Positions 12,746 through 42,263 are shown, counted from the stretch's first letter. The stretch: 64,000 nucleotides of DNA from a virus (IMGVR_UViG_3300035208_004239:259611-323610); one strand, 5' to 3'. The notes: generated by a model not told the origin, from the sequence alone. Numbers and translations: made by a program.

Positions 12746-13077
12746 AAGATAAATGGTGCACTTATGGTGCATGGGGTAAAAAATCACCAACATTTATCGG
12801 AAAATTACTTGAACAACTTGATAAATCTGGAACAATTTTATATTCAGAATCACAAATGTATCCACCTGAATTATGGGATATGGGTTATGTTGAACTATTT
12901 GATACAGTAGAAGAAGCCATAATTTATATGATGAAAAATGATTTTTATAATAGAAGCTTAAATCGTATAAGAGAAAATTTAAGTTTTCCTTCTGATACAA
13001 ATAATATTGATTGGAACAATTTAAGTAAAATTGAAGAGGAAATAAATGAAAAAAAGATACATGGAATCAAATACTAA
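12730..13077 (+). CDS. hypothetical protein
   Basis: 115-aa ORF. Confidence 0.35.
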   Translation: METKIKDKWCTYGAWGKKSPTFIGKLLEQLDKSGTILYSESQMYPPELWDMGYVELFDTVEEAIIYMMKNDFYNRSLNRIRENLSFPSDTNNIDWNNLSKIEEEINEKKIHGIKY

Positions 13078-13181
13078 ATGAGAAAATATAATAAAGAATT
13101 TAATGCTGCATATCGTAATCAATGGCTTAATGATATTAGTAATCATATGATTAATGGTAAATTAAAATAAAATAGGATGTT

Positions 13182-25578: not shown

Positions 25579-25619
25579 ATAAACAAAGATAATAAAAATT
25601 TAGTAAATTACAAATTGAA

Positions 25620-26051
25620 TTAAGATAACTCATGAGACTTACCAATACTACCCAATAAGTTGGTATAGTAACCAGAAACCTCATTTTTATTCATAAAATC
25701 TTTTGGTTCAAGGATGTTAATAATCTGTTCATACCAATAAAGCTGAATACCAAATCGATCCATATCGTTAATAAATTCATTGATTGTTTTGGGTAAACTC
25801 ATTTGATATGTAATATTATCACCAATATTTTTTATTTTATAATTATCAAGGTAAAATTCAAGAATTATTTTATCATCATTGATAAATTTATACCAGTTAA
25901 TCATATTCTTGCCTTTCCACCCATTAAAAAGCGTCTTACAAGAATTTTCATTGAATACTGGATATAACATATCAATTGAAAACAAAGTAGCAAGAAACGC
26001 TTTATATTTCTCGCTACAGTTAGTTTGAATAAATGGGATTACATTTATCAT
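25620..26051 (-). CDS. hypothetical protein
   Basis: 143-aa ORF, ATGA overlap with downstream gene. Confidence 0.4.
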   Translation of the reverse strand: MINVIPFIQTNCSEKYKAFLATLFSIDMLYPVFNENSCKTLFNGWKGKNMINWYKFINDDKIILEFYLDNYKIKNIGDNITYQMSLPKTINEFINDMDRFGIQLYWYEQIINILEPKDFMNKNEVSGYYTNLLGSIGKSHELS

Positions 26052-26713
26052 AAATTTATTTTAAAATTTTCTTTTATTTTATACATTTCATTACCGATTG
26101 GTTCAAAAATGATAATATGAAAATATGATTTGTTTTTATCTTGTTTAGAATCTGTATATGAATGTTTTAAAATACCCATTTCAAATCTGCCTTCCGATAA
26201 AGGCTTGACATAGCTGCCCCAATTTTTATCTGTCGCACTAAAATAGATATCAAAATAATAATAGGCTTTAGCATTAGGCATTCTCCAATCTTCAGCAAAA
26301 TAACTATAAAAATCGACATCAATAATATCATCAGATGCAAGATTCCAAACCATATTAATGGTATCATCCAATCGATACAACCTGAGATTTCTTTTTATAA
26401 TATCACCCGAATACATATTATTATATGGATAATAATATTTACTGGTTGTATCTCTCATATATTCCCATTTATTGGCACAAAGTTCATTTACTTGATATGG
26501 CTCATATGAAAGCATATAATACTTATTATTGTCATAAAATCGATAAGTTGAAATAAAGGGATTGAAATTTGTAAAAATCCTAAAACCATTATCTTGTGAT
26601 CGTTCACATAAACTAACTTTATGTAATGGATCATAATCACCTCCAAATAAACCTTGTCCATAAGTACTCAAAGTAAGTAACATTATAATTGATAAAATCA
26701 TTAATTTTTTCAT
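26048..26713 (-). CDS. secreted hypothetical protein
   Basis: Signal peptide MKKLMILSIIMLLTLSTYGQ; 221 aa, Tyr-rich. Confidence 0.45.
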   Translation of the reverse strand: MKKLMILSIIMLLTLSTYGQGLFGGDYDPLHKVSLCERSQDNGFRIFTNFNPFISTYRFYDNNKYYMLSYEPYQVNELCANKWEYMRDTTSKYYYPYNNMYSGDIIKRNLRLYRLDDTINMVWNLASDDIIDVDFYSYFAEDWRMPNAKAYYYFDIYFSATDKNWGSYVKPLSEGRFEMGILKHSYTDSKQDKNKSYFHIIIFEPIGNEMYKIKENFKINL

Positions 26714-26771
26714 AAATTTAACTTTTAATATGATGGATTATACGGATCATAAGCATTATTGTTACAAAAAA

Positions 26772-26797
26772 AGGTGTATTTTCATACACCTTTTTTA
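26772..26797 (-). terminator. rho-independent terminator
   Basis: aggtgtat/atacacct 8-bp stem, tttc loop, flanked by A-run and T-run. Confidence 0.55.
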
Positions 26798-26816
26798 TTT
26801 ATAAAAATTTCTATAA

Positions 26817-27074
26817 TTATTCTTCAATTAATTTAAATATTGCTACTGGTAATACCATAAGGGTTTTTGGTTTATTTTTTTTATTTCTTAATTCATATTC
26901 AATTAATGAAGTAACTGCACCATCAGATAAAATTTCACCAATATTTATCCAGCTTCTATCAGTTACTTCAAAAAGTACTTCTTCAGTATCACCATCAATA
27001 AATTTAACTGGAATTCTTGGAGTTTCTTTTATGTATTTCATATTATTTAATATCAATTTTATTATATTTTTCAA
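26817..27074 (-). CDS. hypothetical protein
   Basis: 85-aa ORF. Confidence 0.35.
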   Translation of the reverse strand: MKNIIKLILNNMKYIKETPRIPVKFIDGDTEEVLFEVTDRSWINIGEILSDGAVTSLIEYELRNKKNKPKTLMVLPVAIFKLIEE

Positions 27075-27219
27075 ATTTTCTTTTCATATAAATTGTAGCA
27101 TCTTTATATAACCAATTCATAAATTTTCTTACTTGCCGACCACCAGTTAAACGTGTATTACCAATATCATTGTATCGAACACATGACTTCGATATTAGAA
27201 ACAGACCAATTGATGATGT

Positions 27220-27741
27220 TTATGGTAATTTAATATTAAATTTGTTTGATAAATATAATAATGCTTCAGCATTTCCACGACAGTCATCTACCGGAAAATG
27301 GGAGTGGTTAGTTATTCTATGTTTTTTCCATTTATAATACATATTATGTTCAGCACCGCAAAATAAATCACCAATTCTTCTGGATGACCAACCAAAAGGG
27401 TTTGAGCCATAAAATTTATGAAAATAATAATTAAGACATACTCCGAAATCATATCCATTATTATCTGAAATTCCAATTGGTGATCCGATTATATTAATTT
27501 TTAACCAATCCGCAAATTCAGTCATAACTTTTTCTGGTTCATTAAAAGTAAGATGTTCTTCACGACTAAATCCACTAATGGCAAGTGCTTCTGGATTCCA
27601 TTTATCTGAAATAGGTTTTATTTTACCGTAAAATATTTTAGATAATGATGGTTCAACAACGATTGCAGCAAAACAGACAATAGAATAATCTGGAATATAA
27701 CTACCATCGCTTTCAACATCAACACATATTAATTTACTCAT
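27220..27741 (-). CDS. DEDDh-type 3'-5' exonuclease (DnaQ-like)
   Basis: Exo I CVDVESDG, Exo II SDNNGYDFG, Exo III HSHFPVDDCRGNAEAL. Confidence 0.5.
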   Translation of the reverse strand: MSKLICVDVESDGSYIPDYSIVCFAAIVVEPSLSKIFYGKIKPISDKWNPEALAISGFSREEHLTFNEPEKVMTEFADWLKINIIGSPIGISDNNGYDFGVCLNYYFHKFYGSNPFGWSSRRIGDLFCGAEHNMYYKWKKHRITNHSHFPVDDCRGNAEALLYLSNKFNIKLP

Positions 27742-28013
27742 TTTTTATTTTTAGTATCAATTGGATTTACTGTAACAATATACATTTTTTGTAAATTGGA
27801 TTTAAACATCTTATTTGCGAAAATAAATAACATTAATTCAAATAATGTATGTGCTATTCCAAAAACATAATGACCTAAAGAAACAAGAACTGCAACAATT
27901 AAACCAAATGTTAATTTATTTAACCAAGGATTAAATTTATTAAACATTTCTTTAATTCGATTCCAATGGATTTTTTCTTTTCTCCAAAGAATTTTTACCA
28001 AATTTATTTTCAT
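27738..28013 (-). CDS. small membrane protein
   Basis: 91 aa with TM segment GLIVAVLVSLGHYVFGIA. Confidence 0.35.
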   Translation of the reverse strand: MKINLVKILWRKEKIHWNRIKEMFNKFNPWLNKLTFGLIVAVLVSLGHYVFGIAHTLFELMLFIFANKMFKSNLQKMYIVTVNPIDTKNKK

Positions 28014-28014
28014 A

Positions 28015-28554
28015 TTAAAAAGGTATTTTACGAATTAGTGATTTAGGTATTTTATTATATTCTTTTGGGGGAATGTAAAGAACCTTTATTGTAGCAATGC
28101 GTGGTAAACTAAAACCAGTTATCCAATTACTTGATTTAGTATCATAATAAAGTTTTTTCTTAATTATGTATCCTACAGTATCTGATTCGCTTGGTGCAAT
28201 GTAAATTGTATTTAGTTTAATTTTTGTTGTATTATCAGTTTTATTATTACCATACTTAATACAAGTATCTTTTTCATTTTTGGTTGTTATTACACAATAC
28301 GATTTAAAATTAATAGTATCTTTTTTTACAGTATCAACATGAAAACTATTAAAACTATAAGTTGGTTTTTTCCAAGCAATCTCAGTTCTTGTTGAAAGAT
28401 GTTTTCGTATTGAATAATTTGTGGCAAGAGTTGCAACTAATGCAACACCTGCACAAATTAATAGTACAAGATATCTATTTTCCCAAAATTTAGTTTTAAA
28501 AAAACATGAACAGATAAATGAAGTAATTAATACAGAGTTTATAAATATTAACAT
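28015..28554 (-). CDS. membrane protein
   Basis: 179 aa; N-terminal TM helices. Confidence 0.4.
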   Translation of the reverse strand: MLIFINSVLITSFICSCFFKTKFWENRYLVLLICAGVALVATLATNYSIRKHLSTRTEIAWKKPTYSFNSFHVDTVKKDTINFKSYCVITTKNEKDTCIKYGNNKTDNTTKIKLNTIYIAPSESDTVGYIIKKKLYYDTKSSNWITGFSLPRIATIKVLYIPPKEYNKIPKSLIRKIPF

Positions 28555-28574
28555 ATCTTTTAATTATTAAGTTT

Positions 28575-30050
28575 TTAAATTTCAACATTAGTTTCTTTAA
28601 TTTCTTCTTCCACATCTACCCATTCAAGACCCGGACAATAATCGGTATAACTTGAACTAAAATACTCACCAAAAATACCAGTGCTGTTAATAAGACCATT
28701 ACTAAAACCACATAATCCTTTCCAAATATTAACTCCAATAAAAGTACCTACTGGTGCTAAAATTAAATTAAAAAGAAATGTATAAAAAATGAATTTTATT
28801 GGTGTCCAAAGAACATAAAATAAACCATATGCAATTACAATTATAATATATTTTACTGGATAATAAATAATATATATTCCAATGAATCTAAGTGGTTCAG
28901 CATACCAAACTTTTTTTCCTCTTTTATATTTATTAATAACTCCTTGTAACCATCCGGTAATAAAAACATATAAAACATATATAATACCAACAACAATTGC
29001 TGATAAGCCAATAGCAGCAAAAAATATCCAATTACTAATACACCAATCAGCAGCAATTGTTATTCCTAAAACTAAACCATTTACGATAAAATAAGCAACA
29101 CCAAGTAAAAATATTGTAATAAATGCTCCTACAATTTGTTTAGTTGTTTTAATAATATTTTTCCAGTTAGCTGGATTTGTTCTAAATTTATTACGAATTG
29201 ATTTTAATACTTCACCAATTGATTCACCTAATTTATTAAAACCTTCATTTATTGGTTTCATTCTGGCTTCCCATTTAGCTTTTCTAATGATTTCTTTTCT
29301 TCTACGTTCTATGTTTTTTTCTCTTTCTTTTTCTTCATAAATAGCTGCTTTTCTTCTACGTTCAATGTTTATCTCATTACGTTCTTTACGCCATTTGGCT
29401 TCCATTTCTTCTTTTTTCTTTTTATATTCTTCTTCACTTATTTTTTTATCAATATTATATTTTTCAAGAATAAAATATTCAATAAATTCTTCGTCAGCCC
29501 ACTCAGTTTTGTTATTGAAAAACATTTTTACCGTTAATGGCATTTTATTATGTTTATCTTGATAAGAACCCCTATACACATCATATGCTTCTTGATCATT
29601 CAAATCAGCTATATACCGATTAACTAATATTTCAAGACAATTAAAGAAAAGAGTTGGGAAAAATAAAAATATTTTCAATAGAAGTTTTGCAATAAATATG
29701 AAAGAGCAAACAAATAAGGAAAATAATAATAACCAAAAATACGGACATCCGTTTTGCATAGTTTTTGGTGTTGGTGCATTATCCCGGAGTACATATTTAA
29801 TTAAACGATAATGCCATGATTTCATACTTACTCGCATAAGTTTTGGCTTATCTGCTTGAATTACATATTGTTCATCCCCATCATTTAAACGAACTACACT
29901 ATCAATAGGAAATGAACCTAAAATACTTTCAACTACCTTAATATAATAGCCATGTTTATCATTATAAAGAAAACCTTTAAAATGTGAAATATCATGTTGA
30001 TAGAAATCAACGATTTTATTTACTAAGTACTCAAATTTTTGATTTTTCAT
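28575..30050 (-). CDS. large integral membrane protein with internal basic coiled-coil (NIERRRK repeats)
   Basis: 491 aa; multiple hydrophobic helices; ERRRKAAIYEEKEREKNIERRRKEIIRKAKWE segment. Confidence 0.5.
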   Translation of the reverse strand: MKNQKFEYLVNKIVDFYQHDISHFKGFLYNDKHGYYIKVVESILGSFPIDSVVRLNDGDEQYVIQADKPKLMRVSMKSWHYRLIKYVLRDNAPTPKTMQNGCPYFWLLLFSLFVCSFIFIAKLLLKIFLFFPTLFFNCLEILVNRYIADLNDQEAYDVYRGSYQDKHNKMPLTVKMFFNNKTEWADEEFIEYFILEKYNIDKKISEEEYKKKKEEMEAKWRKERNEINIERRRKAAIYEEKEREKNIERRRKEIIRKAKWEARMKPINEGFNKLGESIGEVLKSIRNKFRTNPANWKNIIKTTKQIVGAFITIFLLGVAYFIVNGLVLGITIAADWCISNWIFFAAIGLSAIVVGIIYVLYVFITGWLQGVINKYKRGKKVWYAEPLRFIGIYIIYYPVKYIIIVIAYGLFYVLWTPIKFIFYTFLFNLILAPVGTFIGVNIWKGLCGFSNGLINSTGIFGEYFSSSYTDYCPGLEWVDVEEEIKETNVEI

Positions 30051-30059
30051 ATAATTAAT

Positions 30060-30350
30060 TTATTTAATAGTGTCATCTTCTAAAAAAAATTGTGCGAAAT
30101 TTGGATCAATAATGATATCATCGTAGTTTCCCAAAGTATCTTTAATGTAAAATCGATATGTATTAATTGTACCTATAGAGTCTTGTTCAATTTTAAGAAT
30201 AATACTTCCTTTATATTCGTTAACATTATCAAATTTAACGAATGTACAACTACTACAAGAACTTAACAACAAATATAATACTAATGCGCTAAGTCCAAAT
30301 GTAAATATAAATGAAAATAAAAAAGCTAAAGTATTTTTTATTGTTTTCAT
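30060..30350 (-). CDS. small lipoprotein/secreted protein
   Basis: Signal peptide with LLLSSCSSC lipobox-like Cys. Confidence 0.4.
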   Translation of the reverse strand: MKTIKNTLAFLFSFIFTFGLSALVLYLLLSSCSSCTFVKFDNVNEYKGSIILKIEQDSIGTINTYRFYIKDTLGNYDDIIIDPNFAQFFLEDDTIK

Positions 30351-30841
30351 AAAAATTTAGTTAATATTTTGTGTTTAATACCACTTTGTTTAATACCTTC
30401 ATTTGAACGTGGTGTTATAATAAAATTATCTGGAATCCAAGTAGATAAATCAAGATCGTCAATAGCAACATATTGACATATGTCAATATGTTCATTAATG
30501 TATTGTAATATCTCCATTGAACGACATTCTTCTAATTCTTGTAAACTAAAATATTTGATACCCCATAAATTAGGGGTCTTATCAAATATTTTAGTTTTAA
30601 CACCATTTATTTCAAAGATACGGTTTAAAATATCGAGAGTATAATCCTCTTTCCAATCACTGGATAAAACTATACGTAAATCACTAATTTTTTCAATAAT
30701 TTGATTAAAAACATTTACGCATTTTTCATCAAACCTATAACGATTATATTCAGAATTCCATTTCTTTCTATTAGTGTAATATTGCATTGTTGTTGCTAAT
30801 ACACCGTCAATATCAAGAAATATATAATTATATTGTTTCAT
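30347..30841 (-). CDS. HAD-superfamily hydrolase-like protein
   Basis: N-terminal motif I FLDIDGVLATT (DxDGV). Confidence 0.45.
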   Translation of the reverse strand: MKQYNYIFLDIDGVLATTMQYYTNRKKWNSEYNRYRFDEKCVNVFNQIIEKISDLRIVLSSDWKEDYTLDILNRIFEINGVKTKIFDKTPNLWGIKYFSLQELEECRSMEILQYINEHIDICQYVAIDDLDLSTWIPDNFIITPRSNEGIKQSGIKHKILTKFL

Positions 30842-31194
30842 TCATGTTGAATATCAAATGTGTTTCTGATTGCTTCAATAAGTGCATTTTTTGGAACTGC
30901 ACCGACACCCATTGCTGGTGTTCCTGTAAGTGGAATGAATAAAAGTGCAGGAATGCTTCTAATTTGAAACGCTGAACTAATTTCAATTTCACTATCAATA
31001 TCCACTTTATAAAAATCCACATCTGGAAATTCTTGACTAAGTTCTTCCAGTATTGGAGTAACCATTTTACAAGGAGAACACCAATCGGCATAAAAATCAA
31101 TAATTGTTGGTTTAGTTCCTTCAAATTTCCAATCTTTGTTTTTTTCAAAATTAAAAATCTTAACTTTAAATGTTTCTGTTGTTAAGTTTTCCAT
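30838..31194 (-). CDS. trx: thioredoxin
   Basis: FYADWCSPCKMVTPILEELSQEF active-site (WCxPCK); likely start is Met of MENLTTETFKV, upstream Met of the ORF track overlaps the terminator hairpin. Confidence 0.75.
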   Translation of the reverse strand: MENLTTETFKVKIFNFEKNKDWKFEGTKPTIIDFYADWCSPCKMVTPILEELSQEFPDVDFYKVDIDSEIEISSAFQIRSIPALLFIPLTGTPAMGVGAVPKNALIEAIRNTFDIQHE

Positions 31195-31260
31195 ATATTT
31201 AAATAAAATTAATTGAATATTGTGACCAAATGTAATATAATTTATTTTAATAAACAAAAA

Positions 31261-31283
31261 AGGGGATGAAAAAATCATCCCCT
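31261..31283. terminator. rho-independent terminator after SPFH gene
   Basis: 9-bp stem aggggatga/tcatcccct, loop aaaaa; T-runs on both strands. Confidence 0.6.
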
Positions 31284-31303
31284 TTTATATAATTTATACA
31301 TAT

Positions 31304-32339
31304 TTAATTGTTTGGTAAGCTTAAAATTACCCCTTGACCGTTACCCATCATGTAAGTAGGAAGTTTACCATCCCATTTATTGATCCATTCAAGTTGTATA
31401 ATCTTAGGATTTGCTGCAACTGAAGTACCTTTAATTTGTAAAGATTTTGCTTCACCCATTGCTTGTTCAATGGCAATATTTTTATTAATTTCTGCTTGTT
31501 TAAGTTTTTCTTCCTGTTGTCTTGTTACTTCAACAAGTCTTAAAACTTCTTGTTCGGCAAGTTTTTTAGCATCAATTGCTTTTTCAAAATCACTATTATA
31601 ATAAACTTCTCGAACATCTACCTGATCAATAATAAGTTTATATCCTTTAACTTCTACTTTCTTTAACTTCTACTTTCATTCTTTTAATGACTTCATCTTG
31701 AATTTCTTGACGTTTTGTGCTATAAACTTCAATAGGATTATAATTACTTACTGTTAATGCAAGTGCTGATTTTAATTTAGTTCGAATAATATTATCTTCT
31801 AACCAAATATATCTACCAGTATTTCCACCATCATTTTCAGTAACATTTTGATAAATCCACGAAGCTTCATCCGGAATAATTTTCCAAGATACTGATACGT
31901 CTAATCCCATTTTAATACCATCTTTTGTTGGTGACCAAATAGCATCGGCATTAGGTTTTGCTCCTTCTTGCTGTGCATTTGCACAAGTGTAAACCCAAAC
32001 TGTTTTATCCATCATATGAACATCACACCAAGGCATAACAATATGCCAACCAGTATGAAGTTCCATTTCGGATACTCCTTTTGGTGTAACAAGAACACCT
32101 ACGTCTTGAGGACCTACTTTAGTAATCATACTAAATAAAGCACCCATAATAAAACCCACAATCATTGCAGGTAATGCTAAAGGTAATTCTATTTTTACCT
32201 TTTCAGTTATCGTTTTTGCTCGACCCATACCATCTTTTTCACCAGTTGGTACTTCTTTATCAATAAAGAATAATCGTAAAACTAAACCAACTAAACCATA
32301 AAGAAATAAAATCCAAAATAAAAAACTAAAAAACCACAT
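31304..32339 (-). pseudogene. SPFH/band-7 (HflK/C-stomatin-prohibitin) family membrane protein, frameshifted by a 16-bp tandem duplication
   Basis: N-terminal ORF 31647-32339 (TM anchor + SPFH core) ends MKVEVKESRS*; removing one copy of tttaacttctactttc restores frame into ...GYKLIIDQVDVREVYYNSDFEKAIDAKKLAEQEVLRL...GQGVILSLPNN* (typical SPFH C-terminus) ending at 31304. Confidence 0.6.
31646..31677. repeat. perfect 16-bp tandem duplication (tttaacttctactttc x2) inside SPFH gene
   Basis: Read directly: 31646-31661 and 31662-31677 identical. Confidence 0.9.
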
Positions 32340-32500
32340 ATTATTAGGTATTTAATGATGCTTACTCTAAAGGTTTTCAGCTTCCCCGTTTTATATTATT
32401 TATTAAATATTGTATCAAGTTCATCCCATAATTCAATAAGTAAATATTGATCAATTTTATCTTTATACCACATCAATGCTTGTTGAAATATTGGTTTACG

Positions 32501-32944
32501 TTATAAGTATTCTTTTTTGTATTTACAATACATTGAATCATTATGTTCATAACTATATGTCGCATTTGCAAGAATATCACACATTTTAAGAATAATTGCA
32601 CGATAATCAGCAACAGTCTTAACCATAGTTAATAAATGTTTCATAAGACGATTTGATGATGGTACATCAGTGACAGCTAATACAATATCAGCAATATCTT
32701 TATTAGTATTTTCTAATATGTTATTATAGGATTGTCGAGCATCTTCAATACTATCATGAAAAAGTGATGCAATTTTTGTGTTAATAAAATCATCATTATT
32801 ATGTATAAAAACATTTTGATATCTATCTATTATTGCAGATACTGCATCTATGTGATAGATATATTCTTTATTATCGTATTTAGAATTAACCTCGTTATAT
32901 TGTTTACGAGCAATTTCATGTAATTTTTCATAATTTAAAATCAT
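32501..32944 (-). CDS. HD-domain phosphohydrolase (YfbR-like 5'-deoxynucleotidase / dNTPase family)
   Basis: YHIDAV ... LFHDSIED ... D pattern (H..HD..D); 147 aa. Confidence 0.45.
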   Translation of the reverse strand: MILNYEKLHEIARKQYNEVNSKYDNKEYIYHIDAVSAIIDRYQNVFIHNNDDFINTKIASLFHDSIEDARQSYNNILENTNKDIADIVLAVTDVPSSNRLMKHLLTMVKTVADYRAIILKMCDILANATYSYEHNDSMYCKYKKEYL

Positions 32945-33116
32945 ATTCTTTTAGGATAAATTTTTCCAAGTAAAGTTATGTATAATTTTCCAAATACATG
33001 GTTTTTTAACTGCATATTTTTTTGCAAGATTTATCAAATTTAATCCATTATTATATTCAATTCTAATATATCATGTAAAAAATTTATTAATTAATTTACA
33101 AATTTAGAAAATTATA

Positions 33117-33659
33117 TTACATAACCAAAATTTTTGAATAAATTTTAATATTTTCAAATTTACCTGACCATTTTGAATCATCTTTAAATAAACTATTATC
33201 ACCTTTTGTTTGTAAAAAGTCAATACTTTTAATATAACGTTTATTTTTTGCGTCATGAACAACCCACCAACCATTTATTTCAATATGTGGACTTACAATC
33301 CAAATGGTGTCACCATATTGTATTTTACCATTAAAACGATTGGTATCGTATTTATATTTTTTTGATAATTCTGCCCGATACATATCGTTAATTAAATCCT
33401 GACTAATAGCTATCCAACGATAATTACTTGCCAGTTTCGGATTAATTATTGAACCATCACCAGTTATTGTTGGTGTTGAGTCACATTGTCTTTCTTCTGC
33501 ATGATAAATACTACCCCACACATTGTCATATAATAATATATGGTAAGTATCTTTCTTAATCAATTTTTTATTTATACCATTATTAATCATTGAAGTAGAT
33601 AGAAAAAAAATTGACATTAAAATTACAATTTTATAAAATATTATTTTTTTCATTTTCAA
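33117..33659 (-). CDS. secreted 3D-domain protein (MltA/YabE-like peptidoglycan-binding or lytic domain)
   Basis: Signal peptide; NYRWIAISQDL...IQYGDTIWIV...WVVHDAKNKRYIKSIDFL resembles 3D-domain conserved Asp pattern. Confidence 0.45.
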   Translation of the reverse strand: MKMKKIIFYKIVILMSIFFLSTSMINNGINKKLIKKDTYHILLYDNVWGSIYHAEERQCDSTPTITGDGSIINPKLASNYRWIAISQDLINDMYRAELSKKYKYDTNRFNGKIQYGDTIWIVSPHIEINGWWVVHDAKNKRYIKSIDFLQTKGDNSLFKDDSKWSGKFENIKIYSKILVM

Positions 33660-33751
33660 TAGTTTTTATTAATACTTACACAAAAATACGAATGTTTATA
33701 CAAAGTTGTTACAATTTTTTTGACGAAAGAATATAAATTAGATATGGATAA

Positions 33752-34273
33752 TTGAAAATATTAGATATATTTGCCACAATTAATCATAAATTAATGAAAA
33801 TAATAGAAGCAAATTGGATAGCATTTCATTATGTTACCCGAAGTAATACTACTTGTAAAAATGCAATGGAATTAATCAAGAAATGGAAACTTGAAGATCA
33901 ATATATTAAATTTTATTATGTTACTCGTGCTTATCAAACTCGTCATGGTAATGGATATATAACCAATGAAGGTCTTGATATATCATATATTAAAGAAAAT
34001 CCAGATGAAACAAATACCGATCATGGTATGCAAGGTAAGTTCAGAAAAACTGTATTAGATTTAGACTTACTTAAATATGCTATTTCTTGTAATGAATATC
34101 ATGGTCAGAAACGTGATTATGAAATAGTAATGACTTGTCTTGATCAAGTACCAACAAAAATTCCGGTAACTATTAACGGAGAATTGATTAAGCTTGATAC
34201 TAATCAAATTGCAGAACATTTTGGTTTATTTCATCTTATCGAATGTCATTCAGATAAGGGTTTTGAGATATAA
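33752..34273 (+). CDS. adenylosuccinate synthetase (PurA/PurZ)-like protein, C-terminal part only; 5'-truncated and active-site-divergent
   Basis: FHYVTRSNTT ~ PurA YPYVTSSNTT; AYQTRHGNGYITNE ~ AYSTRVGAGPFPTE; TDHGMQGKFRKTVLDLDLL ~ TTGRRRRTGWLDTVAV; VMTCLDQV ~ CLTKLDVL. No P-loop (GDEGKGK) half anywhere upstream. Confidence 0.5.
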   Translation: MKILDIFATINHKLMKIIEANWIAFHYVTRSNTTCKNAMELIKKWKLEDQYIKFYYVTRAYQTRHGNGYITNEGLDISYIKENPDETNTDHGMQGKFRKTVLDLDLLKYAISCNEYHGQKRDYEIVMTCLDQVPTKIPVTINGELIKLDTNQIAEHFGLFHLIECHSDKGFEI

Positions 34274-34286
34274 TAAAAAACCTTTA

Positions 34287-34326
34287 TATTATTAATTTTT
34301 CATATATATTATTAATTTTTCATATA
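34287..34326. repeat. perfect 20-bp tandem duplication (tattattaatttttcatata x2) in intergenic/promoter region
   Basis: Read directly. Confidence 0.9.
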
Positions 34327-34359
34327 TTTGATGTTTGGTTTTAATAATAATTAAATATT

Positions 34360-35112
34360 ATGAAGTTTTTAATTCAAAAAATAAACGGGAAAATTACTCA
34401 TGATTTTTCTTTTACATTATTAAAATCAATTGAATATCAAAATTGGTTGCACCGGGATTCCTTCATTAAGTTTAAATATTTCAATACTATTTGTCCGGAT
34501 GGTGAAAATTTTAAATATTTTGAATTTAATTCTTCTCATAAAAATTATGTGCCTGTTGGTAGTGTAGAATTTGTAATAGTATTTTTAGAAAAATTCTATG
34601 GGCTTACACCAAAACCACTTAATGTTCCCGAAGAACTTTTTGATCCATATTATTCTTCTCGTCCAATTTTTAATGAAAATAATACGAGTTTGAAAATATA
34701 TAATGATTTTAAATGGTTTGTTAAAAGTAATGATAAAATAAAGGGGTTTTCAGAAATTATTAAACTATCAAAACCATATTCAATTCCAGAAGGTAATTAT
34801 CAAATTTCAGAATATATTAATATTTATAGTGAATGGCGTGCGTTTATATATAATGGAAAATTAGTTGGATTACAAAATTATTCTGCCGAATTCACTAAAT
34901 TTCCAGACATTAATAAAATTCATGCTATGATAAAAGCATATAAATCAGCACCAGTAGCATATACTTTGGATGTAGGTATTGATGGTTCAAATAATACATT
35001 TGTAATTGAATGTCATGATTTCTTTTCCTGTGGATTATATGGATTTGCAGATCATAGAATATATCCACAAATGTTATATAAATGGTTTAAGAATTATATA
35101 AATAAAAAATAA
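34360..35112 (+). CDS. ATP-grasp-fold-like protein
   Basis: C-terminal YSEWRAFIYNGKLVGLQNY ... AYTLDVGIDGSNNTFVIECHDF resembles ATP-grasp core (E-x-N end motif). Confidence 0.35.
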   Translation: MKFLIQKINGKITHDFSFTLLKSIEYQNWLHRDSFIKFKYFNTICPDGENFKYFEFNSSHKNYVPVGSVEFVIVFLEKFYGLTPKPLNVPEELFDPYYSSRPIFNENNTSLKIYNDFKWFVKSNDKIKGFSEIIKLSKPYSIPEGNYQISEYINIYSEWRAFIYNGKLVGLQNYSAEFTKFPDINKIHAMIKAYKSAPVAYTLDVGIDGSNNTFVIECHDFFSCGLYGFADHRIYPQMLYKWFKNYINKK

Positions 35113-36257
35113 TGGAATTTCCAAAACTTTATAAAAAAACCAGTACTGGTGCAATTCAGGAATGGAATGTTAGTGTTGTTATAATTGATGATATAATTAA
35201 CATTGTCAATAAATACGGACAATTAAACGGGAAAATTCAAGAAAGTTGTGAAAAAATTCATGAAGGTAAAAATACTGGTAAAGCCAATGCCACAACTGCT
35301 ATTGAACAAGCCGAATCGCAAGCTAAAAGTCGTTGGGAAAAACAACTCAAAAAAGGTTATGTGGAAACTATTGATGATGCCAAAGCAGGTAAAATTAATG
35401 ATATTATCGAAGGTGGTATCTTTCCGATGCTTGCACATAAGTTTTCGGAGCAGGAAAAGAAAATTAAGTTTCCCGCATTAGCACAACCTAAATTGGATGG
35501 TCACCGCAGTACAAGTCAATATGAAAATACTGTGGTTACGATGTGGAGTAGAACACGTAAACCAATTTTAACTGTACCACACATTGTTAATACTCTTGAA
35601 AATTGTGGTCTTGCCGATAGGTTCGATGGTGAACTTTATAATCATGATTACCGTGAAAATTTTGAAGAATTAACTTCGTTAATAACACCGGATGAACCCC
35701 AAGAAGGTTACGAAAAAATTCAATATCATGTTTATGATTTGGCACTTCCTAACCTTAGTAATTATGATAGATATTTAATCCTTGAAGGATGGCGATCTCA
35801 ATTCGAAAACACTCCGGTTCATATTGTTGAAACTCGTATTGTTAATAATAGAGAAGAATTGATGCAAGCATATGAAGATTTCATGGAACAGGGTTATGAG
35901 GGTGCGATTGTTAGAAATTTTGATGGAAAATATGTTTACAAACGTTCGTATGATTTACAAAAGGTGAAATTCTTCGATGATGATGAATTTCGCATTGTAG
36001 ATATAAAAGTTGGTACAAAAGGTAGTATGGCTGGTAAAGCAGTCTTTATTTGTGAAAGAATTAGAGAAGATCAAAAACTTCCAGAAGGTATAACTTTTGA
36101 TTGTAAACTCAAAGGCGATATGAGTAAACTCAAAGAATATGCAGATGACCCATCACTTGTAATTGGAAAAATAGTTACTGTTCAATATCAAGGATATACG
36201 AGAAAAAATATGAAACCAAGATTTCCGGTTGCATTACGATTTAGAGTAGATTTATAA
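35112..36257 (+). CDS. ATP-dependent DNA ligase
   Basis: Motif I KLDGHR, motif III DRFDGELY, motif IV EGAIVRN, motif V QKVKFF. Confidence 0.8.
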   Translation: MEFPKLYKKTSTGAIQEWNVSVVIIDDIINIVNKYGQLNGKIQESCEKIHEGKNTGKANATTAIEQAESQAKSRWEKQLKKGYVETIDDAKAGKINDIIEGGIFPMLAHKFSEQEKKIKFPALAQPKLDGHRSTSQYENTVVTMWSRTRKPILTVPHIVNTLENCGLADRFDGELYNHDYRENFEELTSLITPDEPQEGYEKIQYHVYDLALPNLSNYDRYLILEGWRSQFENTPVHIVETRIVNNREELMQAYEDFMEQGYEGAIVRNFDGKYVYKRSYDLQKVKFFDDDEFRIVDIKVGTKGSMAGKAVFICERIREDQKLPEGITFDCKLKGDMSKLKEYADDPSLVIGKIVTVQYQGYTRKNMKPRFPVALRFRVDL

Positions 36258-36268
36258 ATTTTAATATT

Positions 36269-36802
36269 ATGTCAGAAACTAAACAACTTACAGCTTATTT
36301 GGCAGGTCCGGATGTTTTCCGTAAAGATGCATTAGAATTTTTTGCCGAAAGAAAAAAACTTTGTTTACAACATGGTATTCAAGGATTATCACCATTTGAT
36401 AATGAAGATAATTTTGGTGATGAATTGTTTTCTAAAGCACATAGCACACATGTATTTATGGGTAATCATAACATTATAGGATTGTGTGATATTATTATTG
36501 CCAATTTGATTCCGTTTCGGGGAGCATGTGTAGACGATGGAACAGCATGGGAACTTGGGTGTGGATATGCTAAAAATAAATTATTGTATGGTTATACACC
36601 ATTTATTAAATATAATTTACCGAGCATTACCGAAATTTCAACATTATGGTTGAATATTAGAAATACTGAATATCCAAAAATTGAATCTTTTGGTAATAAT
36701 ACAGTAAATTTAATGCTTCAAGAAAGTATTGAATTAAGTGGTGGTAAAATATTTTCAACATTTGAAGAATGTTTAATTAATATTAAAAATAGATTCAAAT
36801 AA
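36269..36802 (+). CDS. nucleoside 2-deoxyribosyltransferase family protein (NDT/Rcl-like)
   Basis: TAYLAGPDVF ~ NDT IYFGAGWF; CVDDGTAWELGCGYAKNK ~ DVGLGMELGYALSQGK. Confidence 0.55.
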   Translation: MSETKQLTAYLAGPDVFRKDALEFFAERKKLCLQHGIQGLSPFDNEDNFGDELFSKAHSTHVFMGNHNIIGLCDIIIANLIPFRGACVDDGTAWELGCGYAKNKLLYGYTPFIKYNLPSITEISTLWLNIRNTEYPKIESFGNNTVNLMLQESIELSGGKIFSTFEECLINIKNRFK

Positions 36803-36810
36803 TTAACATT

Positions 36811-37041
36811 ATGATAAAATTTTTAAAAGAAAATGGTTTTCCGATGACATTAATCCTTGATACTGTTGAATATAATGATAAAGAAAATGAATTCAATGGT
36901 TTTTTAACGATTATCAATGATGATCAGGAAAATGAAATTATTAAATTTACTCATACTGATCTACGTGCCAGAATTCATTGGGTTGAAGGATTTTTTACTG
37001 CATATAAAATGTTTAAAAAAGAACCAATTAATTTACAATGA
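36811..37041 (+). CDS. hypothetical protein
   Basis: 76-aa ORF. Confidence 0.35.
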   Translation: MIKFLKENGFPMTLILDTVEYNDKENEFNGFLTIINDDQENEIIKFTHTDLRARIHWVEGFFTAYKMFKKEPINLQ

Positions 37042-37436
37042 AATTTAAAGCACTTAGAAAAAAAGATACTAAAGAATTCATTTATTTTCTCGTAAATGAA
37101 AATTTAAAAATAAGTCTTGGTACTTATATAAGTAAACTTCCTAATCCAATGGCTATTACTGCAACAATGGAAAATGTGAAAGAATATTATTCACAATTCA
37201 CATCAAATTTTGATTTTAATAATATTGAATTAATTGAATTTGATATGTTTGAATCAGATGTTGTTGGTGCAGATATAAGAAATAAACTTACACCACTTAA
37301 AAATCTTCCAGCAATGTTAAAAATATTGAAAAAACGAAAAATAACTAAAGAACAAAGAAAAAAAATAAAAGAATTAATTGAAGTAGAAATAATAAGATGT
37401 GAAAAAAATGTTGATTATATCGCAAATTTATTATAA
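37038..37436 (+). CDS. hypothetical protein
   Basis: 132-aa ORF, ATGA overlap. Confidence 0.4.
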   Translation: MKFKALRKKDTKEFIYFLVNENLKISLGTYISKLPNPMAITATMENVKEYYSQFTSNFDFNNIELIEFDMFESDVVGADIRNKLTPLKNLPAMLKILKKRKITKEQRKKIKELIEVEIIRCEKNVDYIANLL

Positions 37437-37483
37437 TTTTATGAAAAATATTTAAAATAATGGCAGGGCATTGAACCCTGATG

Positions 37484-37618
37484 TGTTGTGTGGTGGAAGG
37501 GTAGACACTCCGGGCGCAGAGATACTAAAAAAGCAATAAAATAAAAACTATTTTAGTCAGCCGGAATAGCGAAGAGTCTCTATAATGCTAAGTGCAGGTT
37601 CGAGTCCTGTCACAACCT
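37484..37618 (+). tRNA. tRNA-like unit 1 (non-canonical, about 135 nt)
   Basis: T-arm gcagg-ttcgagt-cctgt; 3' acceptor cacaacc pairs 6/7 with tgttgtg at 37484-90; D-arm-like gtg-gaagggtaga-cac; stem tccgg/ccgga encloses a 47-nt loop; 28-nt hairpin before T-arm. Confidence 0.3.
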
Positions 37619-37840
37619 CAAAATAGTTCTTTGAAAATGTTAGTCTTTTTACTGAAAATAAATAATGATTACACCCTAAAAAAACCAGAGTCACAGGGAA
37701 AGGTGAGGCGTGGCTCAATCATAGTTAAACCAAATTAACACCATTTATTGTAAGATATTTGTCGATAGACAAGGAGTATGTGGGTTTGGGCACATATAAA
37801 TATTCTGTATTTTGGAACAGATGAAAAGACTAATTTTTAT

Positions 37841-38000
37841 GATCGGATAACTTAATTGGTAAAGTCATATTTTGAGTTGAGTCGTCCAAAACACATACAC
37901 GCAAATCCTTGTCAGCGAAAGCGAATATAAGTCAGTATGTGATATGCTAAAAGGATAAAACATTAACCTTTTAATGTAAGTTCGAGTCTTGCTCCGATCA
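37841..38000 (+). tRNA. tRNA-like unit 2 (about 160 nt; cloverleaf ends with expanded anticodon-side loop; tentative Leu(GAG)-like reading)
   Basis: Acceptor gatcgga/tccgatc perfect 7 bp; D-arm actt-aattggtaa-aagt with GG; stem atatt/gatat encloses 69 nt beginning ttgagtt (U33, GAG); long variable hairpin aaaagg/cctttt; T-arm gtaag-ttcgagt-cttgc. Confidence 0.45.
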
Positions 38001-38158
38001 CGAATCCTAACACGGTGGCTACGTGTTGAAATGTCGGATAACGTGCCTGATAGTTATAAAACTGAAAGGTTTGAATGCCAAAAAGAAGGAACGACAGGAA
38101 GGAAAGTTTTCGCTAAACCTAAGTTTGCCAGTTTTATGAAGACAAAACTGGTTAATTT

Positions 38159-38311
38159 GAATGATTGGCAGAATGTAAAATGCTACAGTTGAAAGTTTGG
38201 CAATAGGCGTTGAGTACAAGTCCATACAGAAGGGCAGGAAAGAAAATGCGATTATGTCCAATACTGGAACGGTAATGTAAAACCGTGTGGGTTTAAATCC
38301 CATATCATTCA
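38159..38311 (+). tRNA. tRNA-like unit 3 (about 153 nt, same architecture)
   Basis: Acceptor gaatgat/atcattc perfect 7 bp; D-stem ggca/tgct; 4-bp stem cagt/actg enclosing 73 nt; variable hairpin acgg/ccgt; T-arm gtggg-tttaaat-cccat. Confidence 0.4.
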
Positions 38312-38470
38312 TTTTATAATAATTTCTAAAAGATCAAGATATTCATCGGACAATTATTGATAAATTTTTTCTGAAAAATTTTTTTCAATATTCAAAAGGA
38401 TAGTCAGCCATATAGAGATATATTAACATATTTTCTTATATTAAAACAGTATTTATATTAAAAAGATTTT

Positions 38471-38737
38471 ATGATTACTTTACATAATTTGGAGCTACAA
38501 AAAATTATTGAACATATGGCTATTCATATTCATGAACAAGCAGTACAAATTCGTAAAGATTATGAAATTCTTCCCGGAATGATAAAATTGTATGCAGATT
38601 TTGCAATTTATTGTACTGATGATAATAAATATTTTTCGTTTCATTATGTGGTTTATGTTGATAATAAAGGTGAAAGATTCCATATTGTGACTTGGACACC
38701 TGCAACACAGGATGAGTTTTTAGATTCAATTAATTAA
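38471..38737 (+). CDS. hypothetical protein
   Basis: 88-aa ORF. Confidence 0.35.
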   Translation: MITLHNLELQKIIEHMAIHIHEQAVQIRKDYEILPGMIKLYADFAIYCTDDNKYFSFHYVVYVDNKGERFHIVTWTPATQDEFLDSIN

Positions 38738-38807
38738 AAAATAATAAAATTTAATTATATTTTCATTTATTTTTTGTATCATTGTGTAATAAAAAATAAT
38801 TACATAT

Positions 38808-39704
38808 ATGAGACAAGCGAGCACCAATTATGGAATTATAATTAATAATGATCAATTTATCGGCATTTCTCTTGGTTATGATTATTGTTCTGAACATGAA
38901 TGGGGAATAAAAGACATAAGAAGATTATGTGGTATTCCAGAATCAACTAAAAAAATTATGGGAGTTAAATCTCGTACAATAACTGTATGTCCTCCCCTTG
39001 TTTTTAATAAAACAACCATTAAAAAAAGAAAATACGCTTACCTATATACTGGAAATTCTTCGGATACTCAAGAAAAAATGGAGAAAAATTTTCCTTATGA
39101 ATTAAAAGATTATTCAGAAAGTCTTATCTATAATGAAGAATGGAATATTAAACATTCGGAAGATAAAGAAAGTAAAGACTTAATCATCACTGCTTGGGAT
39201 GAACATAGTTTTGGTATTGCGGTCATGGGTGAAAAAGAAATTAGTTATCTTCAAGAACTTTACGATGAGTTTCAAAATAAAAATATAACTATTGCGGTCA
39301 TTAATCATCGTGTAACAAATCCTTTTGCTGGCACTGCACTTTCTTTAATGATTACTGACCGTCTTCCTCAAGAAATTCTTGATATGATGTATGCTGGAGA
39401 TAAAGAATATTTTGATCGTGAAGATTATGAAGAAAAAATTGGTATGAAAAAAATCATCCAAAAATATGGAAATAAAAATGGATATAATGGTTTACATTAT
39501 TTTATGGCATGTTCTCCAAATTGGATTGATTATAATGATGAAAAGAAGCGTGAAGAATATAAAACAAAATACAATACCAAGTATAATATTAAATATTGGA
39601 TAAATTATAGTGATGATGATAATAATTGTGGTTGGTATACTGTTGAAGAAATTGAGAAATGGCTCACCGGAAGTAAAAAATTAACCGAAATAAGAAAGGG
39701 ATAA
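38808..39704 (+). CDS. hypothetical protein
   Basis: 298-aa ORF. Confidence 0.45.
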   Translation: MRQASTNYGIIINNDQFIGISLGYDYCSEHEWGIKDIRRLCGIPESTKKIMGVKSRTITVCPPLVFNKTTIKKRKYAYLYTGNSSDTQEKMEKNFPYELKDYSESLIYNEEWNIKHSEDKESKDLIITAWDEHSFGIAVMGEKEISYLQELYDEFQNKNITIAVINHRVTNPFAGTALSLMITDRLPQEILDMMYAGDKEYFDREDYEEKIGMKKIIQKYGNKNGYNGLHYFMACSPNWIDYNDEKKREEYKTKYNTKYNIKYWINYSDDDNNCGWYTVEEIEKWLTGSKKLTEIRKG

Positions 39705-39920
39705 ATACATGATAAAAACAATAAAAATAACTCATTGTATGTTTCAATGTCCCTTTTTACGGAAACTCAATTGATGGAATGATCAGTAATCATCCTTATT
39801 GGAAAGATTATGGAGCATATGATAATAACACAAGAAAATAGTAGAGATAGTAAAATACTGGAAAAATGTCCTTTAATTAAAGAAGAATTAACTATACATT
39901 ATAAACTAAAATAATAAATT

Positions 39921-40241
39921 ATGTGGGGATTTAATATTTATCGGAAAAGAAAAAAATTGGAAATTGACATTGAAATGCAAAAGTACAAAACAACAGCGAT
40001 TAAAGAAGTTGAAACAGTTGCTTTAACATGTGCAAAACAAATAGGTGAATATGAACACACATTTCATTCAAAAAGAGAAGAATTGGGAATCGTCATCGCA
40101 AAAATTGAAGCAAGTAAAGAATCAATGACTAAAGAAATTGAAAATCTTCAAAAGATTATCGAAATAAAAGATTTAGAAATTGATAGGTTAAATAATATCT
40201 GTTTAGAATCTGTAGAAGGAAAAATTATAATTCAAAAATAA
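39921..40241 (+). CDS. hypothetical coiled-coil protein
   Basis: 106-aa ORF. Confidence 0.4.
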   Translation: MWGFNIYRKRKKLEIDIEMQKYKTTAIKEVETVALTCAKQIGEYEHTFHSKREELGIVIAKIEASKESMTKEIENLQKIIEIKDLEIDRLNNICLESVEGKIIIQK

Positions 40242-40246
40242 ATTTT

Positions 40247-40663
40247 ATGATTACTGCAGAAGATAAAAAAATATTCGAAGAATTCGATGAAGTAACCAGT
40301 TATTTCTTTATTGATATGGTTGGTGGCATTATATGGAGAACTGGTCATGATGCTGGTCATGGTAGATATGATATTACTCCTGAAATGCAGGAAGACCTTA
40401 ATGTTCTTCATGAAAAACAAGTATTTTGTGTTCAACAATTAGGTAAGTTTGGAGTTGATCCTGAATCAGCAAACAACAGACCTGATGGTGATTATTGGAA
40501 ATGGTATACTCATTGGGATAATTGGAAAAAAGCAATGAGTGATGAAGAATGGAATACTCTCAATAATAAAATGAGTCAGAAAGAAGACATTTCCGATTTG
40601 CTTCCAAAACATAAATGGAACGAAGTAAAGAAAAAACGAAAAAATGGAAGAAAAAATACTTGA
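40247..40663 (+). CDS. hypothetical Trp-rich protein
   Basis: 138-aa ORF. Confidence 0.4.
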   Translation: MITAEDKKIFEEFDEVTSYFFIDMVGGIIWRTGHDAGHGRYDITPEMQEDLNVLHEKQVFCVQQLGKFGVDPESANNRPDGDYWKWYTHWDNWKKAMSDEEWNTLNNKMSQKEDISDLLPKHKWNEVKKKRKNGRKNT

Positions 40664-41189
40664 ACTAAGAGCATATTTTTTTGTACCATATAATATAAGT
40701 GAAATGCAACGTGGTGTACAAGGAATACATGCAGCATTCAGATATGGTAGAAAATTTGCAGAAGACGAAATTTTTAAAAATTTTGTTGATAATCATGAAA
40801 CTGTTATTATACTCAACGGTGGTACAACTAACGATGAGAGAGATTTTGAAGGATTCGCTGCAGGTACTTTGAATCATATAGGTGATCAACTAAATGATGA
40901 GGGTATTCCTTTCACATATTTCGTTGAACCTGATTTAAATCATGCACTTACAGCATTGTGTTTTATTGCAGATGAAAGAATATGGAATAAAGAAGATTAT
41001 CCAGATTTTATTGATTATCTTACTAATTCAAAAGATATTGTTGATGAATCGTTTACTGCACTAATTACAGCACCACCTGAAGAACTTAAAACCATATTTC
41101 CTGATAAATATAAAGAATGGGTTCGATTAATCGGTGGAGTAAAAAATATATTTTTACGTGAACTATTAAAAGGTAAAAAATTAGCATAA
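40644..41189 (+). CDS. hypothetical protein
   Basis: 181-aa ORF overlapping upstream gene end; no secure motif. Confidence 0.4.
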   Translation: MEEKILELRAYFFVPYNISEMQRGVQGIHAAFRYGRKFAEDEIFKNFVDNHETVIILNGGTTNDERDFEGFAAGTLNHIGDQLNDEGIPFTYFVEPDLNHALTALCFIADERIWNKEDYPDFIDYLTNSKDIVDESFTALITAPPEELKTIFPDKYKEWVRLIGGVKNIFLRELLKGKKLA

Positions 41190-41197
41190 AAAGTATA

Positions 41198-41761
41198 ATG
41201 ACTAAACCCAAACTTATTGCAATTGCTGCCGTTGCTTTAGATGGTACAATTGGTATTGATGATAAAATTCCTTGGAGAATACCTGAAGATTTTAAACATT
41301 TCAGAGAAACAACTATGGGGAATTTACTTATTGTTGGAAACATAACGTATCATACTCTACCAGATAAAGCATTTGAAGGTAGAGAATATATTGTTTTAAA
41401 TCACAATCGATTTAAAACTGATAGACCTAAAGTATATCAATTTAGTGATATTGATATGGTTTTAATGTTATTAAATAATCTTCATTTCGATAAGGTTTTT
41501 ATTGCTGGCGGTGCAAGCATTTATAATGCAATGATTGATTATTGTGATGAAGCAATAATTACAGTAGTTAATAGTCCTTTCTTAAATGGTAACAAAAAAT
41601 TTCCAATAGAAAAATTAGTGAGTGATTTTGAAATACTTACTGGTAATGAATGGGTAGATAATAATTGTGAAGAATGGTTAATTAGTAAAACTGGAATAGA
41701 ATATAAAATTATCCATTATATGAGAAAATTTAATGAAATCCAAGATACAAAAACCGATTAA
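41198..41761 (+). CDS. folA: dihydrofolate reductase
   Basis: LIAIAAVALDGTIGIDDKIPWRIPEDFKHFRETTMGN and FIAGGASIY match DHFR (IAA..GIG..MPW; VIGGGRVY). Confidence 0.75.
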   Translation: MTKPKLIAIAAVALDGTIGIDDKIPWRIPEDFKHFRETTMGNLLIVGNITYHTLPDKAFEGREYIVLNHNRFKTDRPKVYQFSDIDMVLMLLNNLHFDKVFIAGGASIYNAMIDYCDEAIITVVNSPFLNGNKKFPIEKLVSDFEILTGNEWVDNNCEEWLISKTGIEYKIIHYMRKFNEIQDTKTD

Positions 41762-42263
41762 GATTAAATCAAAACAAATTACTACCATTGAAATGGAATT
41801 TGCAATTTCAATTTTATTTGGTATTAGAAAACACATTATTGTACCTAATCTATCTTGGGGTTTTGTTTCGCATGAATGTGATATTTTTTTAGTGAAAAAA
41901 AGTAGATATGCTGTTGAAGTTGAGATTAAAAGAAGTTATAGTGATTTTATGGCTGATTTTAATAAAAGTCATCATCATAAAGAAAGAAATAATAAAATTG
42001 CAGAATTTTATTATGCATTCCCTTCAACAATAGTTGATAGATGTAGAGATTTAGTTCCAGAAGGAGTTGGAATTATTGTTTGTGAAAGACAAAAAACTAC
42101 AGAAACAATTTGGGCAAGTATAGAAAGACGACCAATAAAAATAAAAAATTCAAGAAAATTAACAATAGAAGAAGTATTAAAAGTAGCGTCTTTAGGTTGT
42201 ATGAGAATTTGGAACTTAAAAAGTAAAGTTGTTAATTTACAAAATCAAATTAAGAATGGATAA
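41733..42263 (+). CDS. PD-(D/E)XK-family nuclease-like protein
   Basis: ECDIFLVKK...AVEVEIKRS (D-x(n)-E-x-K) pattern. Confidence 0.3.
   Translation: MKSKIQKPIKIKSKQITTIEMEFAISILFGIRKHIIVPNLSWGFVSHECDIFLVKKSRYAVEVEIKRSYSDFMADFNKSHHHKERNNKIAEFYYAFPSTIVDRCRDLVPEGVGIIVCERQKTTETIWASIERRPIKIKNSRKLTIEEVLKVASLGCMRIWNLKSKVVNLQNQIKNG

Follow-up and report, generated by a model that had tools for sequence, protein, structure and literature searches.

A PurA-like gene remnant in a jumbo phage is very probably the scar of a recent 3,927-bp deletion

The best points of comparison for the locus described here are adenylosuccinate synthetase itself and its phage-encoded relatives. In E. coli PurA (b4177, EC 6.3.4.4), we take Thr300, Thr301, Arg303 and the Val273 loop to be the aspartate-binding residues, and Thr129 and Arg143 to be those that engage the IMP phosphate. 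PurZ and PurZ0, which are related to archaeal PurA, act as N6-succino-2-amino-2'-deoxyadenylate synthases in Z-genome phages. A serine occupies the position of Asp13 in 100% of 147 phage PurZ sequences (PMC12884076). A further phage clade, covered in part by PHROG 1211, includes the mycobacteriophage cluster C 'PurA-like adenylosuccinate synthetase' (Catera gp252) together with proteins of Vibrio phage phiKT1024 and Rhizobium phage RHph_Y65; like PurZ, its members are phage-encoded PF00709 homologues, and no functional work on these non-PurZ proteins turned up in literature searches. With respect to genome structure, the closest parallel is provided by deletion-derived fusion ORFs and gene remnants of phages, which share with the present case a contiguous deletion, a blunt junction, truncation of both flanking genes and survival of the intact allele in the population; there is no essential difference, except that here the fusion happens to keep the reading frame.

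The DNA analysed (the window) is a 64,000-nucleotide stretch of a jumbo phage genome of at least 327 kb and 26% GC. It contains a short ORF (Table 1) that the sequence-only reading had described as a 5'-truncated relative of PurA, and profile searches agree with this assignment. The ORF matches Pfam PF00709 (Adenylsucc_synt; E=2.3e-7, 30.3 bits against a gathering score of 27) over profile positions 229-328 of 416, matches PHROG 1211 with E=8.7e-8, and scores 216.8 bits over positions 222-377 of 379 in a family HMM built from nine full-length relatives. What is missing, both from the ORF and from the whole window, is the N-terminal P-loop (GDEGKGK) with the catalytic Asp13 and the His41 loop, elements that are present only in an intact sister allele. 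No P-loop half was found in the ORF, as had been noticed, nor in the 64-kb window, either by tblastn with the nine relatives or by an unfiltered HMM search of six frames, and the same window, out of a genome of at least 327 kb, yielded no second PurA-like sequence. The next best HMM score, at 59943-60218, is a chance match (6.5 bits, E=0.16). A decayed in-frame relic upstream was considered and rejected: a tblastn alignment with P0006 reaches back to 33602 only by crossing stop codons and is invisible to the family HMM, and the sequence up to 33830 is that of another gene (gene X) and its upstream region. The several in-frame TAA codons upstream likewise dispose of stop-codon recoding as the cause of the truncation.

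Table 1. Coordinates of the fusion ORF, its parts and neighbouring features (window positions unless a contig is named).
Feature	Position	Strand	Description
Chimeric fusion ORF	33752..34273	+	173 aa from TTG 33752; stop ends at 34273
Fusion ORF, alternative start	ATG 33794		159 aa, the form called by JGI (P0146)
5' part from gene X	33752..33830	+	codons 1-26 (MKILDIFATINHKLMKIIEANWIAFH) and first base of codon 27
Deletion junction	33830..33831	.	3,927 bp of L098 8506-12432 lost
3' PurA-like remnant	33831..34273	+	residues 231-376 of the 376-aa protein P0148, and stop codon
Promoter-like site	33611..33639	+	TTGACA-17-TAAAAT, 11/12, consensus match only; upstream of the X/fusion start
Promoter-like site	34263-34292		overlaps last codons of the PurA-like stub
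20-bp perfect tandem repeat	34285..34327	.	TATATTATTAATTTTTCATA, 2.2 copies; spacer between stub and R2K gene
HD_4 phosphohydrolase gene	32501..32944	-	RelA/SpoT/Mesh1-type; not DatZ/dNTPase type
Signal-peptide-bearing protein gene	33117..33659	-	divergent; position conserved in relatives; untouched by the deletion
R2K-clade ATP-grasp gene	34360..35112	+	PF18299, 1e-19; intact in both alleles
ATP-dependent DNA ligase gene	35112..36257	+	PF01068 and PF14743
Nucleoside 2-deoxyribosyltransferase (NDT) family gene	36269..36802	+	PF05014, 4e-23
Module locus	L098 8731-12875		missing from window; also in L015-L094, L001, L096, L097

Alignment of the window with a near-identical sister genome accounts for this structure, and we consider it very probable that the ORF is the scar of a recent deletion in the PurA-like gene. 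Positions 1-8505 of an ENA contig of 188,756 bp (L098, from ERZ27247350) correspond to window 25326-33830 at 100% identity, with 0 mismatches, and L098 12433-20915 corresponds to window 33831-42291 (99.7%) except for one SNP and one 22-bp indel, which are the only differences in the 17 kb compared outside the deletion; the 3,927 bp of L098 8506-12432 are missing from the window exactly between 33830 and 33831. The same intact allele is carried, independently of L098, by the closest IMG/VR match to the window, the 4,157-bp JGI contig Ga0172381_10038993 (L014), whose positions 1-123 and 4051-4157 equal window 33708-33830 and 33831-33937, both at 100%, and which is identical to L098 8383-12539. 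The junction is blunt and shows no microhomology, and since 3,927 is 3 x 1309, the fusion is in frame, with a hybrid codon 27 at the joint. The alignment to the C-terminal part of PurA that had been drawn from the ORF holds for the remnant, but not for residues 1-26, which derive from another gene.

The intact form is ancestral, because in the intact allele each of the two ORFs runs unbroken through its breakpoint, because homologues of gene X in two other contigs (L021 and L045) span the left breakpoint, and because the gene order of the deleted module (J-like, vWA-like, with or without the endonuclease, then PurA-like) is kept in 74 of 74 related IMG/VR loci; the breakpoints, the content of the lost segment and the direction and recency of the change can all be read directly from these comparisons. 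The 146 residues at positions 28-173 of the window ORF match residues 231-376 of the intact protein (P0148) without exception, so no change has followed the deletion. The deletion junction itself recurs in a Logan contig (L010, from SRR18595299), identical over 11.1 kb, and in two JGI contigs, one of them 327 kb long (P0146). Searches with the exact left-flank pattern found only the intact-allele contig L014/L095 in the IMG/VR and JGI metagenomes and nothing in GTDB genomes, the right-flank pattern was not found in IMG/VR, and a look-up of the 159-aa product in public collections returned no record. As a mechanism, we envisage a blunt deletion by illegitimate recombination that removed everything from codon 27 of gene X through codon 230 of the PurA-like gene; the promoter, start and first 26 codons of X now read into the last 146 PurA-like codons, because the deleted length is a multiple of three.

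In the intact allele, gene X is followed by a J-domain/kinase-like gene, two small ORFs, a vWA-fold gene, a GIY-YIG homing endonuclease gene, the PurA-like gene and then the R2K ATP-grasp, DNA ligase and NDT genes. The deleted segment comprises the rest of X, the J-domain/kinase-like gene, the two small ORFs, the vWA-fold gene and the homing endonuclease gene, and it also holds the first 229 codons of the 376-aa PurA-like gene with its GDEGKG P-loop. Gene X encodes a 99-aa protein without a family match; the J-domain/kinase-like protein (295 aa) has an N-terminal J-domain-like HPD motif and a weak match to a PHROG 'kinase' family, the vWA-fold protein (304 aa) falls in PHROG 2971, and the endonuclease (GIY-YIG/NUMOD3, 243 aa) lies at L098 11021-11752. 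None of the X, J-like and vWA-like proteins has a PADLOC or NCBIfam match. The intact PurA-like protein begins MNSIIIGMGMGDEGKG and carries the full family consensus, its first 265 residues scoring 127.3 bits against PF00709. The intact allele has the vWA-fold gene in its expected place immediately before the PurA-like gene; in the window it is deleted.

Inspection of the wider family places the ORF in a large clade of PurA-like proteins, about 375-385 aa in length, from metagenomic phage contigs of which many are 100-366 kb long. A reconstructed full-length member retrieved 2,276 proteins at E<=1e-5, and the best matches in phage databases are clade genes of 36-39% identity. Intact members display GxGxGDEGKG, GGHQ(V/C)GHT, FSNFGSG, HGTVGVGFG, IFEGGQGIMLDxDYGFFPxVTRSNTTSKNA, YYVTRAYQTRHGNGxMxNE, ETNxxxxQGxFR(K/R)xVLD and (I/V)TC(L/M)D. 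When the window ORF and Catera gp252 are aligned with the clade, YxTRHGNG, QGxFR and TxLD stand out as invariant, and the ORF shares TRHGNG, QGxFR and T(C/H)LD in the C-terminal half with the clade. What sets the window copy apart is that just the final 146 of 376 residues remain, preceded by 26 foreign residues, and that its partner genes are deleted. The motifs RHGNGYITNE and TDHGMQGKF on which the sequence-only reading had dwelt are indeed present, but its view of them as replaced catalytic residues and a sign of active-site loss does not hold, since they are invariant in hundreds of intact relatives. Judged from these alignments, the divergent motifs are a conserved signature of the phage clade and not decay, a caution that unusual motifs in a fragment need mean neither decay nor repurposing.

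Comparison of the intact allele with E. coli PurA shows a common PF00709 fold at 25% identity. Asp13, His41, Gln224, Thr239, Asp333 and probably Arg305 are kept, whereas TTGRRRR is replaced by MQGKFRK, TRVGAGPFPTE by TRHGNGYITNE, GTTGRG by GTVGVG, Val273 by His, Thr129 by Val and Lys331 of the guanine motif by Cys; Arg143 is lost, and the clade as a whole lacks a C-terminal subdomain of about 45 residues. In this alignment the intact allele does not share the aspartate-binding and IMP-phosphate residues of PurA, and P0148 remains well below the NCBIfam PurA equivalog cutoffs (125.9 vs 402 for NF002223, 109.7 vs 395.6 for TIGR00184). Bacterial PurA proteins are the best PDB sequence matches of the clade, with the reconstructed L002 gene as query. 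The clade thus belongs to the PF00709 superfamily but falls below the model cutoffs of both PurA and PurZ, although its members carry the label 'adenylosuccinate synthase' throughout.

The signals of gene X probably still drive transcription and translation of the fusion ORF. Every N-terminal catalytic element of PurA is missing from the fragment. With the P-loop (GDEGKG), the His41 loop (GGHQVGH), the loop for the nucleotide phosphate and EGGQG, with Gln224, all gone, its product should be unable to act as an enzyme. An AF2 model of the fusion ORF is confident solely in the PurA-derived part, with pLDDT below 50 at residues 1-4 and 15-24 and 10-residue block means of 47-49 over residues 1-30. 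The modelled fragment matches parts of PurA structures, with target-normalised TM values of at most 0.22, and no stand-alone domain among the structures searched; as modelled, the remaining 40% of the PurA fold is not an independent domain. Of the two fates that had been proposed for the ORF, remnant or repurposed domain, the former is borne out by the loss of 229 5' codons in the 3,927-bp deletion and by the intact allele in the sister genome. The latter finds no support in a PurA part that is 100% identical to the intact allele and so has not had time to adapt, in the missing P-loop, His41 loop and Gln224 motif, or in a model that fits just part of PurA. The refuting case of a complete gene elsewhere, which would make the ORF a duplicate fragment, does not apply, since the complete gene lies at the same locus in a sister genome. 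The ORF is very probably an ordinary gene remnant, neither a repurposed enzyme nor a sign of a 2-aminoadenine genome.

Related phages have lost the module region independently and with different breakpoints. In L007-L009, codon 91 of the J-like gene abuts codon 123 of the PurA-like gene out of frame, leaving a 279-aa ORF; the L007 stub gene lies at 5402-6241, next to a 101-aa J-domain remnant. The stub of L003-L006 is 142 aa long; it begins close to codon 247 (4774-5202 in L003), some 30 bases downstream of a HAD gene, and the similarity seen upstream of the L003 stub is a chance match lying in the C-terminus of that HAD gene. As a rate test, protein distances for the PurA C-terminal part were divided by those for the neighbouring R2K gene, giving 0.92 for L003-6 and 1.00 for L007-9, against 0.93-1.31 for intact genes; the window ratio, 1.17, is uninformative. 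Divergence of the stubs is not accelerated, which fits either recent events or retained constraint.

Several other explanations of the ORF have to be weighed against a deletion scar. An assembly artefact, whether a misjoin or a collapsed bubble, in a real genome with an intact gene would be in keeping with data that are all metagenomic and with a contig, L014, that ends 123 and 107 bp past the two breakpoints in the manner of an assembly-graph branch. We regard it as highly improbable, given that the junction is repeated in a Logan contig of another run and in two JGI contigs, that the breakpoints have no common k-mer or repeat able to cause a misjoin, and that reading L014 as a branch of the graph puts the deletion path in the reads as well. 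The ends of L014 suggest, without amounting to proof, that both alleles co-occur in its sample. Homing-endonuclease-split genes occur in T4-like phages, and the intact allele has a GIY-YIG gene immediately in front of the PurA-like gene, which raises the idea that the N-terminal half is encoded elsewhere and that two polypeptides assemble into an active enzyme, the more so as, of the genome's 327 kb or more, the search covered 64 kb. By the same token, the lost segment might conceivably have moved to another part of the genome. Such a split gene seems more improbable still: no N-terminal half is found in the window, the PurA-like gene is in one piece in the intact allele, and the loss is a contiguous deletion with a blunt junction that took five other genes with it. 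The homing endonuclease could possibly have promoted breaks or local rearrangements.

The remaining alternatives concern what the fragment does or once did. That it is the remnant of a PurZ gene marking a present or former 2-aminoadenine (Z) genome, the angle for which phage PurA homologues had first drawn attention, has a probability close to nil. The PHROG 1211 label is of the PurZ type ('2-aminooxy adenylosuccinate synthetase') and HD and NDT-family genes lie nearby, but the intact allele has GDEGKG with Asp instead of Ser, the NCBIfam PurZ model NF038379 gives 23 bits against a cutoff of 300, no PDB PurZ chain is matched at E<0.01 by the reconstructed L002 gene, and the HD gene is RelA/SpoT-type and not DatZ-like. 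In the window ORF itself the Asp13 position is deleted; GD(E/A/G)GKG, with Asp, is found in the intact allele and all relatives examined, no neighbouring gene is of the DatZ/MazZ type, and the NDT-family gene has no NCBIfam model match. Because the clade scores below the PurZ model cutoff and keeps Asp13, there is very probably no link to Z-genomes, and a false lead towards PurZ and Z-DNA is removed. Less far-fetched, although still improbable, is a C-terminal fragment retained as a functional protein, be it a partner of the R2K ATP-grasp or ligase or a dominant-negative factor acting on host PurA, which would explain its survival in different phages after loss of the 5' part. Three independent truncations have left open ORFs, no residue of the C-terminal half that is invariant in the family is missing from the truncated copies, their rate is not accelerated relative to R2K, and the window fusion keeps the reading frame downstream of an intact start codon and a promoter-like site. 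Against this, the window remnant is identical to the intact allele in flanks with 1 SNP in 17 kb, in L007 the two parts are joined out of frame, the right-hand breakpoints fall at different codons (~123, 230 and 247), the fragment is no separate domain of the PurA fold, and survivorship suffices, a promoter-like site overlapping the last stub codons. Conservation of the window stub says nothing about selection, because a sequence identical to the intact allele within near-identical flanks marks the deletion as too recent. The in-frame fusion could give a stable protein. Under the preferred reading of the ORF as a deletion scar, the stub most likely survives since viable deletions cannot enter the R2K and ligase genes or their upstream signals.

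The deletion scar matters little in itself; the more interesting lead is the pair of vWA-fold and PurA-like genes. Among the 74 related IMG/VR loci with enough upstream sequence, a vWA-fold gene of PHROG 2971 lies upstream of the PurA-like gene in every one (74/74), preceded by the 295-aa J-domain/kinase-like gene in 45, and a free-standing GIY-YIG/NUMOD3 gene occurs sporadically between the two in 12-14. Copies of this endonuclease were also noted at L011 4602-5342 and, as a remnant, in L002. The same arrangement is found in Catera (gp250/gp252), Vibrio phage phiKT1024 and Rhizobium phage RHph_Y65, and isolate phages contribute 220 vWA-fold and 219 PurA-like records from the same host genera. 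The module is found in jumbo phages whose hosts are unrelated: mycobacteriophage cluster C, phages of Vibrio and Rhizobium, and the AT-rich window lineage. An AF2 model of the vWA-fold protein (pLDDT 70, pTM 0.78) has as its top Foldseek matches the NorD VWA domain, integrin I domains and the Ku vWA domain, and the protein carries a DxTGS MIDAS-like motif; a profile search of PDB sequences gave no match. These observations suggest that the vWA-fold and PurA-like genes are linked in function and form an uncharacterised module, now missing from the window phage. Tentatively, the window phage might be seen as a natural knock-out of a three-gene module, in which GTP-dependent activation of a 6-oxopurine nucleotide would be coupled, with a vWA partner, to a nucleophile other than aspartate, because Asp13, His41 and Gln224 are kept but the aspartate pocket is rebuilt; on this view the widely conserved module is lost as a unit, and a less likely variant would give the in-frame X-PurA fusion protein an activity of its own. 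Under at least some conditions the phage can do without the J-domain/kinase-like, vWA-fold and PurA-like module, and its two alleles, intact and deleted, amount to a near-isogenic pair found in nature that offers a handle on its function.

Examination of the flanking genes confirms by Pfam matches the ATP-grasp, DNA ligase and NDT-like neighbours that had been named downstream (Table 1), while the upstream HD gene, taken earlier for dNTPase-like, is instead an HD_4 gene, and the solved structures closest to it are RelA/SpoT hydrolase domains and Mesh1; from these resemblances it may encode an alarmone hydrolase. The R2K gene directly follows the PurA-like gene in 33 of 80 loci, all in the closer clade, and a functional link between the two was set aside, as adjacency so limited may be plain synteny. 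A HAD_SAK_2 phosphatase gene at 30347-30841 (- strand), with the R2K ATP-grasp, ligase and NDT genes (34360-36802, + strand), resembles RNA-repair gene sets, which in relatives are joined by genes for an RNA ligase and a Thg1-like protein (L002 15906-17349; L003 12235-12849).

Some further features of the two alleles and their relatives were recorded in passing. The SNP between the alleles is T/C at window ~40232 (L098 ~18834), and the 22-bp indel is a tandem duplication (GAATGGTTAATTAGTAAAACTG) in the L098 DHFR gene (window ~41650-41671, L098 ~20274-20295), the product of which is 169 aa in L098, with the duplication, and 187 aa in the window. In L002 (ENA contig_106906), frameshifts break the PurA-like gene (9316-10474) and the DNA ligase gene (12830-13466) and are probably long-read assembly errors; positions 1-5064 at the end of this contig hold bacterial-type genes (MetH, UbiA, prephenate dehydratase). 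Window 37440-38400 is ORF-poor, at 33-40% GC against a background of 26%. ARAGORN reports no tRNA in the window, and at 38159-38311 (+ strand) the Rfam tRNA model matches over its full length with 28.8 bits (gathering score 29, E=0.0012). In this candidate the acceptor and T arms are good, the anticodon arm contains a 77-nt insert and the variable arm is long; it may be a tRNA-like gene with an intron or of some other unusual type.
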